Shown in pieces: positions 955-20,415 of a stretch of 45,680 nt of DNA (its first letter is position 1; each line of letters starts with the position of its first letter). The notes under the pieces are model-generated. The model was given only the letters and a program-made list of their open reading frames with translations. It was not told where the DNA came from and did no database searches. The translations under genes and the position numbers were made by a program. This DNA comes from Acinetobacter phage vB_AbaM_AB4P2. Location: the sequence record OR544125.1. The stretch is one strand, 5' to 3'.

Positions 955-1776
955 TTAGTTCTCATTAGAAAACGCCTCGCAGCTCTCGCTGCATGAACCA
1001 GTATCGTACTGCCGCATTGACGTCATTCGTGATGCCAGTTCATCCCTGCTTACATCGTTAAATAAAGCTATAACGTCGCCAAGACTTCTGTTTGAGCGAT
1101 ACATTATCTTGTCTGATTTTTTATCTTCATCCTGAATCATCTTCCAAAATTCAGCGGCAAGTTCCGGCTCATCCTTTGCAGCAAGCGCAACTTTCTGCAG
1201 GCTCTTCTTGATGCAGAAAACACAATTACCAAGATGCTCCTGAATTCCAAGGTCGAATTGCTGCATTGACCACCAGTCAAGGATATCCTGCTTTTCAAAG
1301 TCGCTGATGTCTGCAAGGTAATGAAAACCGTCACCTCGGTTCTTTAACCGGTTTGGCTCATCAGACCTGATGCCAAGCCATCTCTCGTAATTTCCTTTTC
1401 CGTATTTTTCATTGCAGTATTTAGTGAATGGCACAGCCTTCATTCTGTCGGTGCAGAACGCACCACCAACATATGGATGACCGTACTTGCGCAACATCCT
1501 CCGCCACGGCTCAAGGTCTGGGCCAATCTCATCGACGGTTAGCTGCTCATACGTACTTGCTTTGCGCATCTCATGATTTGGCACCACACGAAGACACGTC
1601 ACGGCGACATTGAAATGCCTTGCGAAGTTGCGAATAAACTCATACGTTTTTGGGTGCTCAGCGCCCGTGTCCATAAAGATGACCTCCGCTTCAGGGTGTA
1701 TCTTTAGCACCTCCAGAGTCATAAACGCTGAAGTTCTTCCGCCTGAAAAGCTAATAACTTGGTTCATGTCCATCAC
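955..1776 (-). CDS. PAPS/APS-reductase family protein (adenine-nucleotide alpha-hydrolase fold, CysH/DndC-like). A CxxC and a CxxxC near the C-terminus suggest an Fe-S cluster.
   Basis: ISFSGGRTSAF is a PP-loop-like motif. VIFMDTGAEHPKTYEFIRNFARHFNVAVTCLR parallels E. coli CysH [32 protein letters not shown]. The gene is antisense inside a plus-strand block. The RBS aggaaggag suggests the true start is 1767 or 1773. Confidence 0.75.
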   Translation of the reverse strand: MMDMNQVISFSGGRTSAFMTLEVLKIHPEAEVIFMDTGAEHPKTYEFIRNFARHFNVAVTCLRVVPNHEMRKASTYEQLTVDEIGPDLEPWRRMLRKYGHPYVGGAFCTDRMKAVPFTKYCNEKYGKGNYERWLGIRSDEPNRLKNRGDGFHYLADISDFEKQDILDWWSMQQFDLGIQEHLGNCVFCIKKSLQKVALAAKDEPELAAEFWKMIQDEDKKSDKIMYRSNRSLGDVIALFNDVSRDELASRMTSMRQYDTGSCSESCEAFSNEN

Positions 1777-5210: not shown

Positions 5211-6299
5211 ATGTCAAAAGAAAAGACATCACGCTTTGTTTCTGAAGTAATCCGTCGATATGGCAATCGTTATGATTATTCAAAGACTAATTACAAAAAC
5301 TCAAAAACTAAAGTCATCATTACCTGCCGCGAGCATGGTGATTTTATGCAATCACCATCAAATCATTTAGCTGGTAATGGATGTCCGGCGTGTGCGTGCA
5401 TCAGAAGAGGCAACGCAAAAAGAAGCGATGCGGAATCGTTTATATTAAAAGCCAAAACAATCCATTCTAATACATACGAATACTCGAAAGTTAAATACAA
5501 AGATTGCGAATCAAAAGTTGTAATAGTTTGCCGAAGGCATGGTGAATTTGAACAAAGACCATCAGATCACTTACATGGTCAGGGATGCCCTAGCTGCGGA
5601 CTCATAAAGAGAGCAAGGTCTTATTCTCTTGGTAATGATCTGTTTATTGAGAAATCAAAGAGCATTCATGGTGACAGATATGATTACTCACTCGTTAAGT
5701 ATGAAGCAAACAATAAAGAAGTAATGATACTTTGCGAAATTCATGGGGTTTTCTTGCAAAAACCATCAGTGCATCTCATTGGATGTGGATGTCCGTACTG
5801 CGGTAAGAGCAAGCAAGTAAAATCACAAACTGATAGCGAGGCTGATTTTGCTAGAAAATCAAGGGCGGTCCATGGAGATAAATACATTTATGATAAATGC
5901 GGCTACAAGAACTCCCTCACCAACGTGTCAATAACATGCCCCATACATGGCGTATTCGTACAGCGAGCATCGCATCATATACAAGGATCTGGATGTCCAT
6001 CATGTGCTGTAACAGGATTTGATAAGAATAAGAAATCGTATGTTTACTTCCTAATGAGCGAGAAAGGAATAAAAGTTGGGATAACCAATAAAATAAAGCA
6101 ACGCATTATGCAACTAAGAAGCAGTACGCCATTTGAGTTTGAGGTGATTAAGTACGTAAAACTTTCAGGCGTTGATGCAATATCAATGGAGAACGATTAT
6201 CACAATAGATATGAGTCCGCTGGACTTAGTGGGTTCAATGGATGCACCGAATGGCTTAAGTATTCACCAGAATTAATGAATGAAATAATGAATAATTAG
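5211..6299 (+). CDS. T5orf172 / MUG113 (GIY-YIG-like) domain protein with four N-terminal tandem zinc-ribbon repeats. Putative free-standing homing-type endonuclease.
   Basis: Four repeats of about 65 aa follow the pattern F..K...H...Y.YSK..Y.....K..I.C..HG.F.Q.PS.HL.G.GCP.C. The C-terminus YVYFLMSEKGIKVGITNKIKQRIMQLRSS...NGCTEWLKY matches the T5orf172 pattern ending in EW(F/L). Confidence 0.6.
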   Translation: MSKEKTSRFVSEVIRRYGNRYDYSKTNYKNSKTKVIITCREHGDFMQSPSNHLAGNGCPACACIRRGNAKRSDAESFILKAKTIHSNTYEYSKVKYKDCESKVVIVCRRHGEFEQRPSDHLHGQGCPSCGLIKRARSYSLGNDLFIEKSKSIHGDRYDYSLVKYEANNKEVMILCEIHGVFLQKPSVHLIGCGCPYCGKSKQVKSQTDSEADFARKSRAVHGDKYIYDKCGYKNSLTNVSITCPIHGVFVQRASHHIQGSGCPSCAVTGFDKNKKSYVYFLMSEKGIKVGITNKIKQRIMQLRSSTPFEFEVIKYVKLSGVDAISMENDYHNRYESAGLSGFNGCTEWLKYSPELMNEIMNN

Positions 6300-14123: not shown

Positions 14124-15194
14124 ATGGAAAAGATTATTTTTACCAAAGACCTGGTAGCCAACTCCGCAGTGGTGGCTGACCAGTGGAAACATCTGACCAT
14201 CGACCGCAAGGTGTTCTGCAATGCAGAAGCTGAACTGGCGAAAACCTATGGCGTTAACGCCACCGCACTAGTAACGAAAGATTACTGGCGCGACGTGGAT
14301 AACGTTACCACCCGCGTTTTCCGCAACGAAGCTGGTCAGGATATGATGGCTGACCTGATGGGTATCGCGGCAAACATCAATATCGGTAAGACTGTGGCAA
14401 TCAGCCGCATTGCTTCCGATGCTGGTAAGGTCGTCCGCACTCTGTCTGGTCAGGAGCCGGAAGATTTGGATAAAACTCGCTACGATTACACTGGCGATGT
14501 GATTCCAATCTTCAAAACTGGCTACAGCCGCGAATGGCGTGAACTGCTGGGTATGCAGTCTGAAGGCTTCGACCCACTGCTGGACGATCAGGCTAACGTC
14601 ACCTTTAACCTGCGCTCTGATATGGCGCAGTATCTGCTGACTGGCGACCAGACTCTGAACGTGAATGGCGTTTACACTGGTTATGGCATCACCAACCACC
14701 CGAACACTGTTCAGGTTAACCTGAATGCCTCAGGCGGACTGAATATCGACCTGCAAACCGCAACTCCTGACCAAATCGTGACCTTCTTCAATCAGGATTT
14801 CCAGGCTATTCTGGATGCGCAGAACGTATTTGAGCAGGTGACTCTGTGGGTTTCCCCGGCAGTACGTCGCAGCTTCATGCGTCCGTATTCTGATGCGGCT
14901 GGCTTCAAAGGTGGCACTGTTGAGCAGTACATCACGCAATTCGGTAATGGTCGCATCGGTAAGATTGGCACCAACTTCCTGCTGACTGGCAACCATTTCG
15001 TTGGCTACGTTCGCAACGACATGTACATCCGTCCGCGTGTTGCTCAGCCCGTTTCCACCTACGCAGCAGCCCGTGTCAACCCGCACGATAACTTCAACTT
15101 CCTCGTGTGGTCAGCTATGGGCCTCCAGATTCGTAAGGATGCCGCCGGGAAAAGCCGTGTCTTTAATGGCTACGGTGATCAGGCAGCTAAATAA
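14124..15194 (+). CDS. Major capsid protein (356 aa).
   Basis: Right size and position. It is followed immediately by a strong terminator, typical of a highly expressed structural gene. Confidence 0.7.
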   Translation: MEKIIFTKDLVANSAVVADQWKHLTIDRKVFCNAEAELAKTYGVNATALVTKDYWRDVDNVTTRVFRNEAGQDMMADLMGIAANINIGKTVAISRIASDAGKVVRTLSGQEPEDLDKTRYDYTGDVIPIFKTGYSREWRELLGMQSEGFDPLLDDQANVTFNLRSDMAQYLLTGDQTLNVNGVYTGYGITNHPNTVQVNLNASGGLNIDLQTATPDQIVTFFNQDFQAILDAQNVFEQVTLWVSPAVRRSFMRPYSDAAGFKGGTVEQYITQFGNGRIGKIGTNFLLTGNHFVGYVRNDMYIRPRVAQPVSTYAAARVNPHDNFNFLVWSAMGLQIRKDAAGKSRVFNGYGDQAAK

Positions 15195-15196
15195 TA

Positions 15197-15220
15197 AAAA
15201 AGGGGCTTCGGCCCCTTTAT
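15197..15220 (+). terminator. Rho-independent terminator after the capsid gene.
   Basis: aaaaaggggcttcggcccctttat. Confidence 0.7.
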
Positions 15221-15235
15221 GAATTGAGGTGAATA

Positions 15236-15457
15236 ATGGCTAAATACGAAGTCATCGCACGAGGCATCTTTGTAAAAGAAAAGGGCAAGATTCGTGAGTT
15301 GCAGCTTGGCGAGGTGATTACCGAACCAGCTGATCATCTGATGTCAAAGCTGCGCGTTATGCCAGAGCTGCCAAAGACGTTTGAGGTTGCCACGCCTGCA
15401 AAAGAAGGTGACAGCAAACAAAAACGCCGTCGTCGCGCAGGTAGCGAAGATGAATAA
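15236..15457 (+). CDS. Hypothetical protein (73 aa, basic C-terminus).
   Basis: RBS gaggtg. It is followed by a terminator. Confidence 0.4.
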   Translation: MAKYEVIARGIFVKEKGKIRELQLGEVITEPADHLMSKLRVMPELPKTFEVATPAKEGDSKQKRRRRAGSEDE

Positions 15458-15458
15458 A

Positions 15459-15486
15459 TAAAGCCCCATGTCGGGGCTTTTGATTG
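15459..15486. terminator. Bidirectional terminator.
   Basis: aagccccatgtcggggcttttg. On the minus strand it ends the antisense island. Confidence 0.65.
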
Positions 15487-16023
15487 CTACAGACGCATAG
15501 GCATAACAACAATATTCGCAGTCTCTCCAGATGGCGCGCTAAGACAGCAAACTGCGGCATTTGTATTTCCATTCAACTCAAACTTAACGCTGCTGAATTT
15601 AGGATTAAACAGCTTCGCCACTTTCTCAATATCAACCAGATAACCAGCATTAAATCCGATGCAATCTGCCGCTTTCGTTTCCTTTGGTATAACACGATCA
15701 ATGTCAGGGAATCGTCCGTCAATCTCTTCGCATATACCAGTGCCAACCATCACTCCAACTTCATCATGATACGTTGCAATTTTCGACTTGGTATCAATGA
15801 TGGCGTAGTCATAGCGTTTTGTTGGAGATTTGCCAATCTTGATAATCACATTTTCTGTCAGCGTATTGTCATGGCTTCCACCAATGAATGCGCGATGACC
15901 GTCAGTTGATGCAATGCGACCATCAGTCATGAAGCAAATGCCATTCAGGTAGTAGCGCACATCATTGCGAGCCTGAAAGATTAATGCTGACTCAAGTAAT
16001 AATTTGCTTATTTTTAGTTTCAT
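15487..16023 (-). CDS. Truncated DNA polymerase III beta sliding-clamp (DnaN) homologue. It keeps domain II and the C-terminal half of domain III, and lacks domain I.
   Basis: [29 protein letters not shown] matches E. coli DnaN [44 protein letters not shown] matches [28 protein letters not shown] matches GFNVSYVLDVLNALK. The C-terminus IVVMPMRL matches AAYVVMPMRL. RBS aaggtgaag precedes the ATG at 16023. The listed ORF extends to 16065. Confidence 0.8.
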   Translation of the reverse strand: [178 protein letters not shown]

Positions 16024-16182
16024 CACTTCACCTTGATCATGTGCTGTTTTGCAACCTTCAGGCATTCTTCAAAAATGCCACCCTTCTTTGCGCTCTGATT
16101 GCGCTTGTAATACTGAATAGCCGCATCAATTGCCATCTGGTCGATGTCAGGCAGCTTGGTGCGAAGTTGCTTGACGAGAAAA

Positions 16183-16677
16183 TCATAAACGTTCACTTTT
16201 TACTCCGTGATTCTCGTGATACCCAGTTGAAGTTTCAGCTTTTTCTCTAGCGGATATTGCATCTTCTTTATTGGCAAAAAAACCAATATGCATCTTTGAT
16301 ACATAAGCCCTCCATAACCCACTCTTCCTGTCAAAGCTAACACCAGTTCTTCCTGATTTGTTATTTTTCTGCCTGCTAAGATTTCTATGGTTCTCTATAT
16401 GGCTCACCAGCCTTAAGTTTTCAATGCGGTTATCATCACGAATATGGTTAATGTGATCAATTTGCATCCCGTCAGGGATTGGTCCATTAAACATCTCCCA
16501 TATGATTCTGTGAGCCAAGAATTTTTTGTAATCAACGCATATGATTACATATCCTGTATTTGCAATTGTCCCAGCTAAAGAGCCACTTAGCATTTTTCTT
16601 TTTTGGTGCTTCCACCTAAGAACCCCATTATCATAATGAAAAATATCACCCCAATTTATTTTAGTTGTGCTCATCAC
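16183..16677 (-). CDS. HNH (HNH_3) plus AP2-domain homing endonuclease.
   Basis: IDHINHIRDDNRIENLRLVSHIENHRN is the HNH_3 motif. SGRTGVSFDRKSGLWRAYV is an AP2 DNA-binding domain. Confidence 0.8.
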   Translation of the reverse strand: MMSTTKINWGDIFHYDNGVLRWKHQKRKMLSGSLAGTIANTGYVIICVDYKKFLAHRIIWEMFNGPIPDGMQIDHINHIRDDNRIENLRLVSHIENHRNLSRQKNNKSGRTGVSFDRKSGLWRAYVSKMHIGFFANKEDAISAREKAETSTGYHENHGVKSERL

Positions 16678-17483
16678 ATCTTCTCCAGAATTGCCATAAC
16701 CTCGTGAATATCAGCGACAGGAATCTGAATAAACTCCTCATCTTCTGCCACTACATGACCAGCAGGTAGAATCACGTGGTCTGCTTGCTTCAACAGCTCA
16801 ATCAGGCGGTCTACTGGCTTAATCTTTTTCGACTTCAGCACTTTGGCTGTAACCTTGTCTTTGCCTTGTGCTTTGGCCTCTTCGACTGCCTCGTCGATAA
16901 CTTTTACTGCATCCTCACCATGCTCACGAGTTACCGCTACGGCATTTGCATAGCTAATTTGCCCGGCACTGATTCGCGCTTTCACCTCCGCTGGCACATC
17001 ACCCAGTGACAGGTGCATTTGCACGTCAGATACTGAGCGACCTACCTTCTTGGCGATTTCTTCATTCGTCCAGCCAAAGCCTTTCAGTCGCGTGTAGGCC
17101 TTTGCGCGTTCAAACGGGTCAAGTTGCTTACCCTGACTGGATGACACCATGAAGGCGATTTTGTCCGCCTCGTCGCCAGTGAAATCCTTACATTCAATGC
17201 GAACGATTGGTGCGCCACGTTCAATTGCACGCAGTGCGCCGAGATAGCGATGCTGACCGTCAAGAATGCGGATTCCCTTCTCGTCTGGAATAACTGTTAA
17301 TGCTGGTAATGGCTGGCCTGATTCCCAGCATTGCGCGAAATATTCGACATGCTGCTCATCTGCTTCACGGATGTTGTATCCCGGCTCCAGATAGATTTGC
17401 TCCACTGGCACGAGATAGGTTTTGTTAACAGCGATGCCGTTTCGCGTTTCTTTGTCTGAATAGATTTTGCTTAGTGTCTTCAT
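16674..17483 (-). CDS. DGQHR-domain protein (ParB/Srx-fold, DndB/DpdB-like).
   Basis: GIRILDGQHRYLGALRA contains the exact DGQHR signature. It has a ParB N-domain-like context and a charged, helical C-terminal half. Confidence 0.7.
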   Translation of the reverse strand: MKTLSKIYSDKETRNGIAVNKTYLVPVEQIYLEPGYNIREADEQHVEYFAQCWESGQPLPALTVIPDEKGIRILDGQHRYLGALRAIERGAPIVRIECKDFTGDEADKIAFMVSSSQGKQLDPFERAKAYTRLKGFGWTNEEIAKKVGRSVSDVQMHLSLGDVPAEVKARISAGQISYANAVAVTREHGEDAVKVIDEAVEEAKAQGKDKVTAKVLKSKKIKPVDRLIELLKQADHVILPAGHVVAEDEEFIQIPVADIHEVMAILEKM

Positions 17484-17842
17484 TGTTTCTTTCCTAGTGC
17501 TTTCTTGATAGATTCTTCAGCTAACAGTAATTCCTCTGGGTATTGTTCATTCCAGTTTTGTTTGTATGCCTTGCTAAGCATTTTTTGCAGAGATTCAAGC
17601 AACTCAGGGGCTGCTGCCATTAAATTAAAGTCATGCACAACGCTGCCATCAATCTCCCAATGCATCCCGTTGTATTTGGCACCCTTACTAGAGAAGGCGA
17701 TGTTTCTGTCATCGTCATAGTGACAACCCGGCGTGTCATCAGCTCTACAAGACGGGTAAACCGCTGCGCAACCACCGCGAATATCTGCAACCCACGGACC
17801 TGGCGTGCCTTTAAATTCTTTCATCTCCATTACCTCTAACAT
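17480..17842 (-). CDS. Ead/Ea22-like family protein (C-terminal domain type).
   Basis: GTPGPWVAD and the later LMAAAPELLESLQKML fit the Ead/Ea22-like pattern (GPW ... LIAAAPELLEAL), from memory. Confidence 0.4.
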   Translation of the reverse strand: MLEVMEMKEFKGTPGPWVADIRGGCAAVYPSCRADDTPGCHYDDDRNIAFSSKGAKYNGMHWEIDGSVVHDFNLMAAAPELLESLQKMLSKAYKQNWNEQYPEELLLAEESIKKALGKKQ

Positions 17843-17851
17843 TTATTGTTG

Positions 17852-17900
17852 TTTCTACGTCACTAACTATAAACGCCGCACCAATCTACGTCAACAGGAA
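17852..17900. promoter_or_regulatory. Divergent promoter region. Two minus-oriented motif copies sit beside the shared string CGTCAACAGGAA, which precedes a plus-strand gene.
   Basis: tttctacgtca (17852-17862) and aatctacgtcaacaggaa (17883-17900). The same cgtcaacaggaa string recurs at 38949-38960 and as a reverse complement at 42391-42403. Confidence 0.45.
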
Positions 17901-19529: not shown

Positions 19530-19927
19530 TGCCAGCGAAATTAAGAGGCGTCAGGCAGGCCGTAGAAAGAACATCGCAAATTGTGGACGAGATAATCGCC
19601 ACGAAAGCTGTGCGTGCAATCAAGTCAGCGACATACATCATCCGAACCGAATCAGCCACGCTAACGCCAATTGATACTTCAACGCTGATTAACAGCCAGT
19701 TTGATACCGTGGAAGTCAGCGGAACTCGAATCACTGGCAAAGTTGGCTACTCTGCAAAATATGCTCTGTACGTTCACAATGCAAGCGGTAAACTTACAGG
19801 TAAACCACGCAGTAACGGCAATGGTACATACTGGTCGCCTAATGCTGAACCTAGATTCTTAACAAAGGCTGCCGATAAAACTCGCAGCCTCGTTGATTCA
19901 GTGATAAAAAAAGAAATGAAGATTTAG
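19529..19927 (+). CDS. Tail completion protein, HK97 gp10-like family.
   Basis: VGYSAKYALYVHNASGKLTGK fits my recollection of the gp10-family core. Correct position in the neck gene block. Confidence 0.45.
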   Translation: MPAKLRGVRQAVERTSQIVDEIIATKAVRAIKSATYIIRTESATLTPIDTSTLINSQFDTVEVSGTRITGKVGYSAKYALYVHNASGKLTGKPRSNGNGTYWSPNAEPRFLTKAADKTRSLVDSVIKKEMKI

Positions 19928-20415
19928 CCGTGGTTTGCGAACTCCAAAAACAGTTCATCTACTTTTTTGCAATAGGCTTTATGGGCGGCTTCTTTGTCTG
20001 AAAACCTACCAAGATGATAGCTTTTCCCATGCATCTTTACCGTGGCTCTCCATTTTCCAGTGTACTTGCAAAAATGAACTCCTTTATATCCAGACGTGTT
20101 TGATTTAGATATCTTTGTGTTCCTTGCGTTCTCGCAGTCACTGGCCTCCCTCAGGTTTGAAATTCTATTGTCATCACGAATATTGTTTATGTGATCAATT
20201 TCATGCTCAGGGACATATCCATAATGGATAAACCAAGCCACTCGGTGCGCCCTTAATCTTTTCTTCCCAAGTGTTATGTATCCTGCGTCGTTGTGATAAT
20301 TTGCAATATCACCTTTTGATATTTTCCCGCAACTTACAGCCCAGGTGAACAATCCGGTAATCGGGTCGTATTTAACTCTTGACGCGATTGCTATGTAATC
20401 CCGCTCTGAAATCAT
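19924..20415 (-). CDS. HNH (HNH_3) plus AP2-domain homing endonuclease. Paralogue of 16183..16677.
   Basis: IDHINNIRDDNRISNLREASDCENARN and SGYKGVHFCKYTGKWRATV. It is antisense and wedged between tail-completion genes. Confidence 0.8.
   Translation of the reverse strand: MISERDYIAIASRVKYDPITGLFTWAVSCGKISKGDIANYHNDAGYITLGKKRLRAHRVAWFIHYGYVPEHEIDHINNIRDDNRISNLREASDCENARNTKISKSNTSGYKGVHFCKYTGKWRATVKMHGKSYHLGRFSDKEAAHKAYCKKVDELFLEFANHG

Follow-up and report, generated by a model that had tools for sequence, protein, structure and literature searches.

The beta sliding clamp of Escherichia coli, DnaN, receives its partner proteins in a pocket made of 18 distinct residues in two subsites (I and II), and closes into a dimeric ring through an interface that involves Ile78 and Phe106 of domain I and Ile272 and Leu273 of domain III (PMC11139829). 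The ParB fold is found in proteins that act outside partition: KorB of plasmid RK2 and Noc combine the ParB N-terminal fold with a ParB-type helix-turn-helix and have no role for a ParA partner, KorB being encoded by a mobile element (for its mechanism see PMC11790492), and DndB is a ParB-like, ATP-dependent repressor (PMC12704722). Here we describe a locus in which relatives of both systems stand side by side. It occupies positions 15487-17842, on the minus strand, of the 45,680-nt genome of Acinetobacter phage vB_AbaM_AB4P2 (OR544125.1; this entire stretch of DNA is termed the window below), the small genome of a siphophage that belongs to the Skatevirus group. We consider it probable that the locus is an operon of five genes, conserved in Skatevirus-type siphophages and transcribed opposite to the head genes, with a core formed by a ParB-like protein, a protein of 57 amino acids (aa) and a clamp fragment that we term the mini-clamp, with two further slots of variable content, and with a proposed regulator and a proposed pocket module among its products. 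Its interest lies in the clamp fragment reduced to the pocket and in the ultra-conserved orphan ParB. An earlier reading of the same letters (the original prediction) had seen a four-gene island of DNA-transaction proteins, typical of counter-defence or host takeover; most of its coordinates are right, but its gene count and one of its labels are not.

On the minus strand, 15487-17842 is an unbroken series of ORFs (open reading frames), and the overlap of their stops and starts, which the original prediction had noticed, is confirmed by the ORF map of this strand: the joints are ATGA at 17480-17483, TGATGA at 16672-16677, an overlap of 14 nt at 16183-16196 and TGATG at 16021-16025. The antisense unit thus stands as first drawn, but its genes number five rather than four, as a 57-aa gene had been missed. 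In the direction of reading these are: gene 1 (17480-17824), a variable slot, encoding 114 aa, or 120 aa if counted from the ATG at 17842 (phrog_1273, 1e-16); gene 2 (16674-17483), a core gene for an orphan protein of the ParB/KorB/Noc type with 269 aa (HTH_ParB, KorB and, at 3e-91, phrog_1033); gene 3 (16183-16674), the second variable slot, holding a putative free-standing HNH homing endonuclease of 163 aa (HNH_3; phrog_99, 3e-61); gene 4 (16023-16196), the core gene for 57 aa (phrog_4439, 6e-20); and gene 5 (15487-16023), the mini-clamp of 178 aa with beta-clamp matches, core in nature and dispensable in the laboratory. The start of gene 1 is most likely at 17824, because its close database homologues have 114 aa and the spacing to a GAGGT ribosome-binding site is good. 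Gene 3 begins with the ATG at 16674, the mechanical ORF call having taken a GTG at 16677. Gene 5 begins at 16023, where the TGATG overlap couples gene 4 to it translationally, and not at 16065, as had been proposed.

The earlier identification of gene 5 as a DnaN fragment proved correct by sequence, profile and fold matches. The protein matches the beta clamps of the PDB in a phmmer search (7.6e-12) and is aligned to E. coli DnaN by hhalign with a probability of 99%. Its match to TIGR00663 (37.1 bits against a cut-off of 137.65) covers model positions 137-281 only, the mini-clamp having 178 aa against about 366, and both of its Pfam clamp domain matches are below their cut-offs. A structure predicted by AlphaFold2 (AF2) with an alignment of 57 sequences, distant family members included, reached a pLDDT (predicted local distance difference test) value of 92, as against 40 with 19 sequences of 70-93% identity; in a Foldseek search of the PDB the top 50 matches were all bacterial beta clamps (E 4e-8, template-modelling score (TM) 0.67). 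Domain II of DnaN and the interdomain linker are covered by residues 1-117, and the second half of domain III (317-366, score 74) rather than its first half (250-312, score 30) by the last 60 residues, which terminate in VVMPMRL, identical to the C-terminus of E. coli DnaN. Of the 18 residues in pocket subsites I and II, 16 are identical in the mini-clamp, and 14 of the 18 recur in at least 93% of the members of the 57-sequence family, in which columns average 37% identity. Judged from sequence and model together, gene 5 encodes a beta sliding clamp in truncated form, in which the partner-binding pocket survives and the parts that form the ring are gone. With the monomeric I272A/L273A variant of DnaN it shares fold, pocket, C-terminus and the want of a working dimer interface; it differs from DnaN in its length, in having no domain I, in being encoded by a phage and in being dispensable for growth. 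PHROGs labels this family (phrog_3007) 'RusA-like Holliday junction resolvase', a name that we reject as a misnomer, both sequence and fold being those of a beta clamp; the label has been propagated via PHROGs to pharokka and RefSeq re-annotations. The family, which is widespread, thus goes mislabelled under this name or that of 'DNA polymerase III beta subunit'. A 192-aa protein recorded for Acinetobacter phage vB_AbaM_AB4P2 itself, WPJ20705.1, belongs to the mini-clamp cluster.

Such a fragment might still be a genuine processivity factor, several copies of which close a ring (for instance four copies, each with three beta-alpha-beta-beta-beta units, giving 12) and tether DNA polymerase III (Pol III) or an enzyme of the phage. 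Its fold and pocket do match a sliding clamp, this phage, lacking a DNA polymerase gene, has to rely on Pol III, and some phages employ clamps for other tasks as well (gp45 of T4; the host beta clamp in Mu late transcription). But the mini-clamp cannot form the ring, because domain I and the half of domain III that contains Ile272 and Leu273 (residues roughly 253-313) are missing. The AF2 model, moreover, has no helix at residues 64-72, which align to an E. coli segment that we take to be the second, DNA-facing helix of domain II. By reasoning only, half-domains related by a radial two-fold axis would not be expected to tile by simple rotation, and the gene can be deleted without loss of viability. 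A processivity factor is therefore improbable in our estimation.

Our preferred reading of gene 5 remains that of a pocket module. As no canonical clamp-binding motif was found in any phage ORF of at least 50 aa, the ligands of the mini-clamp should be host proteins; a QLDPF in the ParB-like protein is probably coincidental and falls in a conserved structured ParB segment. The mini-clamp would probably act in soluble form, by binding the clamp-binding motifs of replisome and repair proteins of the host, with the delta clamp-loader subunit, Hda, MutL/MutS and the translesion polymerases as candidate targets, and would redirect the Pol III machinery on which a phage without a polymerase depends. 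For a phage, the clamp network makes sense as a target because the delta subunit binds monomeric beta about 50 times tighter than the dimer (PMC11139829), and because a small RNA (sRNA) of lambda, LPR1/PreS, enhances dnaN translation (bioRxiv 10.1101/2024.10.31.621285). That the clamp fragment is a host-takeover factor is plausible. A bolder proposal, possible but clearly tentative, is that the large phage and prophage family of 'pocket-only' clamp fragments consists of soluble decoys, which titrate proteins with clamp-binding motifs and thereby reprogram the host replisome; in that case clamp-targeting toxins and defence effectors would also be candidate ligands. If true, this would be a new kind of host takeover, in which the binding site of a hub is mimicked instead of the hub being inhibited, and it offers a precise, cheap and testable hypothesis for the manipulation of the host-replisome hub by polymerase-less phages. 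The clamp pocket is also an antibiotic target (griselimycin and related compounds). Phage P1 encodes Hot, a homologue of the theta subunit, and both Hot and the lambda sRNA resemble the mini-clamp in that a Pol III-reliant phage encodes something aimed at the clamp network; they differ from it in adding or up-regulating a complete subunit, whereas the mini-clamp is truncated and should bind partners without clamping DNA. We found no publication that characterizes a phage beta-clamp fragment or the mini-clamp family, and the mini-clamp is not involved in the HK578 escape mutants of the OLD preprint.

Matches to the mini-clamp occur in 277 phage records, and a profile search retrieves over 6,000 proteins, some of which may be full-length clamps; the family is common in prophages of Enterobacteriaceae. 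Its company elsewhere is that of replication and recombination and not of ParB. In a Vibrio phage it adjoins Dam and SSB; in Salmonella prophages it follows a CI-like repressor and precedes recombination and polymerase genes; in Serratia prophages (L026, L027) an early operon beside the integrase holds a homologue of theta (HolE-like), RecT, an MT-A70 methylase and the mini-clamp, so that two mimics of host Pol III holoenzyme parts are found together there. Sodalis phage SO-1 (L006, 3992-4510) and Burkholderia phage Bcep781 (L007, 3998-4579) each carry a lone antisense mini-clamp inside the head-morphogenesis module, and the antisense placement among head genes thus recurs in two unrelated phage groups. 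We looked for a wider linkage of ParB and mini-clamp in SO-1, Bcep781, the Vibrio phage and the prophages and found none: the link is confined to the Skatevirus/Roufvirus group.

The other main component, gene 2, appears to begin with a ParB NTP (nucleoside triphosphate)-binding fold, in which DGQHR (DGQHRY) replaces the GERR box, and continues with a ParB-type helix-turn-helix. The original prediction had called it a DGQHR protein of the DndB/DpdB kind. The motif is literally there, at the same position of the ParB fold as in those proteins; the family assignment fails, as the DGQHR model TIGR03187 scores 16.1 bits against a cut-off of 58.85 and covers residues 61-101 only, while ParB, Noc and KorB match far better. 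In Pfam, HTH_ParB (PF17762) is found at 44.8 bits (cut-off 22.6; 1.5e-11) and KorB (PF08535) at 27 bits (cut-off 22.3; E 4.5e-06), and the matches among known structures are Spo0J (1vz0, 2.8e-13) and Myxococcus ParB (7bnk, 1e-09), these two spanning the N-domain, the KorB chains 8qa8 (1.5e-3) and 1r71 (1.4e-2), and Noc. TIGR00180, the model of the ParABS partition ParB, gives 39.2 bits (cut-off 58.45), and Pfam ParBc no match at E<=0.1. The domain order is that of canonical ParB/KorB, a further difference from DndB/DpdB. Hence gene 2, by its sequence, is better read as an orphan protein of the ParB/KorB type that carries a literal DGQHR. We mapped its residues onto Myxococcus ParB with the structure-match alignment and the residue list of PMC13229309: both phosphate-binding arginines (R54 and R95 of the Myxococcus protein) are kept, and in place of the hydrolysis residues Q52, E93 and N127 the phage protein has N, Q and S, respectively. 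The protein would probably be an NTP-switched DNA-binding regulator or an organizer of the phage genome, and it may work in the manner of KorB, by site-specific loading and by silencing or organizing promoters, of which it may control many, as KorB does. It departs from KorB in that no KorA-like partner and no palindromic operator were identified in the phage, in its GQHR in place of the GERR box and the changes in the other hydrolysis residues, and in belonging to a lytic phage.

The best sequence matches of gene 2 being ParB and Spo0J of chromosome and plasmid partition, one might suppose that it is part of a partition system which maintains the phage in a plasmid-like carrier state. We regard this as highly improbable. 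No ParA-type domain was detected among the larger non-structural proteins scanned, and none is annotated in the related phage Skate; the LG[KR]GL motif through which ParA is bound (as defined in PMC12704722) is missing from the N-terminus of the ParB-like protein. A palindromic parS or operator was sought among palindromes of 12-16 bp and discarded, since there was no enrichment over shuffles and none recurred, which leaves a non-palindromic or degenerate site possible. Furthermore, Skate has no annotated integrase or repressor, and the papers on the relatives call them lytic.

A second supposition takes the ParB-like protein for a loader or regulator of a DNA-modifying enzyme, of the DndB/DpdB/IbrB type, and the operon for a DNA-modification (anti-restriction) module. 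The literal DGQHR and the weak TIGR03187 match point this way, as do several gene neighbourhoods: a methyltransferase lies immediately downstream of ParB in the phages Bas78, Bas80 and 6947, and a C5 methyltransferase three genes upstream of the 9NA homologue. In addition, phage-encoded ParB-like proteins are known to activate T-dioxygenases (PMC13229309), phages commonly encode fusions of ParB with a methyltransferase (PMC12704722), and a PAPS-reductase-like gene of the window (955-1776) stands behind a two-box promoter of the same type as that of the operon. Yet the operon of the window holds no modifying enzyme: neither the dnd/dpd partner genes (dndCDE, dpdA) nor another DNA-modification partner was found in it. 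ParB is universal in the group and the methyltransferase sporadic, no modifying enzyme adjoins the distant ParB homologues of MD8, ep3 and FoX5, and the full ParB-type helix-turn-helix of gene 2 is unlike the ParBs associated with dioxygenases. A partnership of ParB with the PAPS-reductase, in the manner of IbrAB or DndBC, was considered and set aside: the reductase-like gene has no homologue in Skate or in the minimized genome seszw_280L, and the distant ParB homologues are not beside such genes. On this balance a DNA-modification module is improbable.

Searched against phage genomes, the operon and its flanks match 199 records, and more than 100 sequenced phages carry the operon at about 90% identity, so that at the level of annotation it is already described and ordinary. 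The best matches (about 90-92% identity) are Salmonella phage BS5, Shigella phage DS8, the E. coli phages Bas78 and Bas80, Skate, swi2 and Sf11. The hosts of the close relatives are in every case Salmonella, E. coli, Shigella or Klebsiella; an Acinetobacter host would therefore be odd. We compared gene order across 11 independent relatives, from Skatevirus to Roufvirus, and three engineered mutants. ParB, the 57-aa gene and the mini-clamp have the same order and the same locus, between the capsid region and the head-tail genes, in all 11, and in these natural isolates the three are never jointly absent; the 57-aa gene lies directly upstream of the clamp-like gene in 10, the eleventh, phage 6947, having a 58-aa ORF between the two. 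The slot after ParB, by contrast with this core, is empty in pIS4-A, where ParB abuts the 57-aa gene directly, and otherwise holds a C5 methyltransferase (Bas78, Bas80, 6947), small ORFs (Skate, Sf11, swi2, ASO78B, ZCKp20p) or the HNH gene (BS5 and the window phage). In Sf11 (L020, 3320-3630) the junction GAGAAGATGTGATGA, made of the ParB stop and the next start, stands on both sides of a 67-aa insert; this suggests, at the level of sequence, that modules are exchanged as cassettes at a conserved joint. Skate (L004, 3474-3560) and Seszw_1 have in the slot after ParB an unannotated Cys-rich mini-ORF of 25 aa (MTPIEKICCPRHGGSGTKSTCPYCK). The 5' slot holds members of the family PF27050 that are 33-98% identical, or unrelated genes, which replace the family in BS5, Seszw_1 and phage 6947; in BS5 and Seszw_1 the replacement is phrog_14587, labelled 'anti-restriction protein' by PHROGs. 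In sum, the operon combines a fixed core with two slots whose content can be exchanged.

Selection on these genes was compared by the ratio of nonsynonymous to synonymous substitution rates (dN/dS) against six relatives at about 90% nucleotide identity, with the more distant pIS4-A kept separate. The ratio is 0.006-0.015 for the ParB-like gene, 0.05-0.11 for the major capsid protein, 0.08-0.10 for the mini-clamp and, against most relatives, 0.17-0.27 for the 57-aa gene; against pIS4-A it is 0.067 for ParB and 0.133 for the capsid protein. ParB has the lowest value of all genes measured, and its amino-acid identity is 98-99% across relatives whose DNA is about 90% identical. A close relative, seszw, has been experimentally minimized with CRISPR (PMC9825161), and we inferred dispensability from the deposited genomes of its mutants. 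The viable mutant seszw_160S has lost the 57-aa gene; seszw_280L (36,975 bp) and seszw_280S have neither the mini-clamp nor the 57-aa gene and keep ParB and the first gene. Among the records that share 99% identity or more with seszw, 72 contain the capsid gene, 70 each ParB and the first gene, and 47 the mini-clamp: the latter is missing from about one third of the viable mutants of this lineage. Among the 55 genes of seszw_280L, ParB is the sole recognizable DNA-binding regulator. Bas80 (L002, 3266-3802) has an in-frame stop at codon 57 of the mini-clamp gene, which is annotated as two ORFs; this phage of a reference collection is a natural mini-clamp knock-out. The mini-clamp is accessory in the laboratory, because it is deleted in viable seszw mutants and interrupted by a stop codon in Bas80, yet it is under purifying selection in nature, where it would be beneficial while unneeded for plaque growth in the laboratory. 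ParB behaves in a manner consistent with a required gene. Coming from a strictly lytic phage, being more constrained than any other gene measured and surviving minimization, the orphan ParB is a good model for the non-partition functions of the ParB NTP-switch fold in phages, which recent surveys have flagged as largely unexplored.

The original prediction took the whole unit for an accessory counter-defence or host-takeover island that is gained and lost as a block and whose members neutralize host immunity. Several observations agree with this: the C5 methyltransferase after ParB and the 'anti-restriction protein' of the 5' slot in the relatives named above, a G+C content below that of the neighbouring capsid genes, the dispensability of the clamp fragment and the 57-aa gene, and the presence of the PF27050 family among the early accessory genes of a P22-like phage, adjoining kil. 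The comparison of relatives, however, speaks against presence or absence as a unit, as some of the genes are core (the trio) and others scattered (the HNH gene is sporadic and the first slot is replaced). ParB has the lowest dN/dS measured and is kept in minimal genomes; the window carries neither the methyltransferase nor phrog_14587; the PADLOC models matched the operon members through homing-endonuclease models only; and in the BASEL phenotyping Skatevirus is markedly sensitive to restriction-modification and to Old (PMC11990801). The prediction had also made every member a DNA-transaction protein, which is clearly so for three of the five products. An island of this sort is unlikely, though the idea of counter-defence survives in a weaker form for the variable slots and the mini-clamp. 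Nor is the antisense layout special to this spot: because Skate has at least five antisense cassettes of this type in its structural half, it is a general feature of the genome type.

That the locus is a discrete antisense transcription unit, as had been proposed, agrees with a conserved promoter at one end and a terminator at the other. The promoter (17866-17894, minus strand) is of a sigma-70-like type and matches the consensus at 10 of 12 positions, with -35 TTGACG (17894-17889), a spacer of 17 nt and -10 TATAGT (17871-17866). The two minus-oriented motif copies that had been noticed in this region are exact copies of TCTACGTCA, at 17854-17862 and 17885-17893, 31 bp apart. The upstream box (17885-17893), which reads TGACGTAGA on the operon strand, is an exact 9-mer that overlaps and extends the -35 element; the downstream one (17854-17862, minus strand) lies just past the -10 element, around the predicted transcription start, and because of this placement could be an operator. 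With at most one mismatch, the box occurs 21 times in the window against 6.6 expected, a number reached in none of 100 shuffles, and the copies sit in intergenic promoter regions ahead of non-structural cassettes. In the form TGAYGTAGA(T) its positions include 1789, 1820, 1898, 6742, 6771, 9687, 17854, 17885, 23194, 35760, 38939, 42394 and 42411; it precedes replication, lysis-adjacent and accessory cassettes, often in pairs, and overlaps -35 (TTGAYG) and sometimes -10 (TAGATT) elements, so that it may serve as a promoter signature or as an operator. The layout of two boxes with the same spacing of 31 bp is found again at 1789-1828, ahead of the minus-strand gene 955-1776. The -35 and -10 elements, both boxes and the 5' leader persist in each of the 11 relatives examined, Roufvirus phages of about 70-80% identity among them, whatever first gene follows, while the spacer varies; ASO78B has a promoter annotated at the same place. 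Because the promoter shares its box with replication and accessory cassettes, the operon would probably be expressed with the non-structural genes, from a sigma-70-type promoter of the host RNA polymerase. Its sequence makes a single transcript likely, there being no minus-strand terminator-like site inside the unit and only one internal minus-strand promoter-like match, a weak one (9/12).

Several points count against this picture of a ParB-type regulator and a pocket module in one operon. The retention of ParB in the minimized genomes fits essentiality and is no proof of it. NTP binding is uncertain because the ParB pocket has lost the canonical hydrolysis residues, and the nucleotide bound by a ParB fold is not predictable from sequence (PMC12704722). 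No DNA site for the ParB-like protein was found, and the only over-represented motif is non-palindromic, overlaps the -35 and may simply be a promoter element. The timing of the operon and its single transcript are both inferred. In the mini-clamp, Leu177 of the pocket is Ala and Val344 is not alignable with confidence; the AF2 model is that of a monomer, which leaves oligomers possible; and a decoy strong enough to trap delta would also harm the phage's own replication.

Of the remaining genes, gene 3 had been called an HNH-AP2 endonuclease. The HNH part is confirmed by PF13392 (HNH_3, 80 bits against a cut-off of 24.8, 1e-22) and by PADLOC homing-endonuclease models; for the AP2 part there is no Pfam AP2 match at E<=0.1, and the C-terminal GVSFDRKSGLWRAYV resembles AP2-like modules. 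The gene has the lowest G+C of the unit (0.40), is found in BS5 at 99% identity and is absent from the other 10 relatives compared. By its sequence, the slot between ParB and the 57-aa gene thus appears to hold a selfish HNH homing endonuclease which, like the free-standing ones of other phages (phrog_99, HNH_3), is precisely inserted between two conserved genes and sporadic, with nothing unusual about it. An HNH_3-type paralogue of 163 aa (19924-20415, minus strand; 62 of 172 aligned positions identical, 36%) lies antisense between the head-tail genes, and BS5 has an HNH gene at the matching place. The 57-aa gene (phrog_4439, E 6e-20) is present in every relative.

Gene 1 has the signature FKGTPGPW...LIAAAPELLEAL...KALG, and its database homologues carry the precomputed family PF27050. 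The label Ead/Ea22-like, which it had been given, has to be dropped: neither the window protein nor any of 27 family members matches PF13935, which lambda Ea22, as a positive control, matches at 1.1e-28, and hhalign of the family profile against lambda Ea22 gives a probability of 0.4%. Both seszw and BS5 have a PF27050 copy elsewhere in the genome. In Skate (L017, 7653-7847) a second, distant PF27050/phrog_1273 copy (35% over 86 aa) stands in another antisense cassette, from which it follows that the family moves between cassettes.

The operon ends in an intrinsic terminator, the bidirectional hairpin AAAGCCCC-atgtc-GGGGCTTT at 15460-15480 (both strands; 9 pairs, 5 of them G-C), with an A-run on one flank and a T-run on the other. 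It had been taken for the terminator of the capsid gene; it is bidirectional as stated, but what it closes, besides the operon, is a convergent ORF of 73 aa (15236-15457), the capsid gene ending at 15194 with a hairpin of its own at 15198-15218. Skate and ASO78B have terminators annotated at the corresponding place on both strands, and the hairpin is intact in the engineered deletion mutant seszw_280L.

Elsewhere in the window, the gene at 955-1776 (minus strand), with boxes ahead of it at 1789-1797 and 1820-1828, forms another antisense cassette and encodes a protein of 273 aa with a PAPS-reductase domain (PF01507, 5.6e-10). Because of its absence from Skate and seszw_280L it is to be counted as a variable accessory gene, and its product may have a part in DNA modification or anti-defence. 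Neither Rfam nor tRNA searches of the window gave a match; ARAGORN reports no tRNA gene in it, while in relatives such a gene precedes the major tail gene, within the head-tail region (tRNA-Ile in Skate, tRNA-Met in Bas80). In the portal/head-morphogenesis region, 5211-6299 (plus strand) encodes a protein of 362 aa with T5orf172/MUG113 and zinc-finger domains, probably the product of another selfish nuclease gene; Skate has an 'endonuclease' annotated at the matching position.

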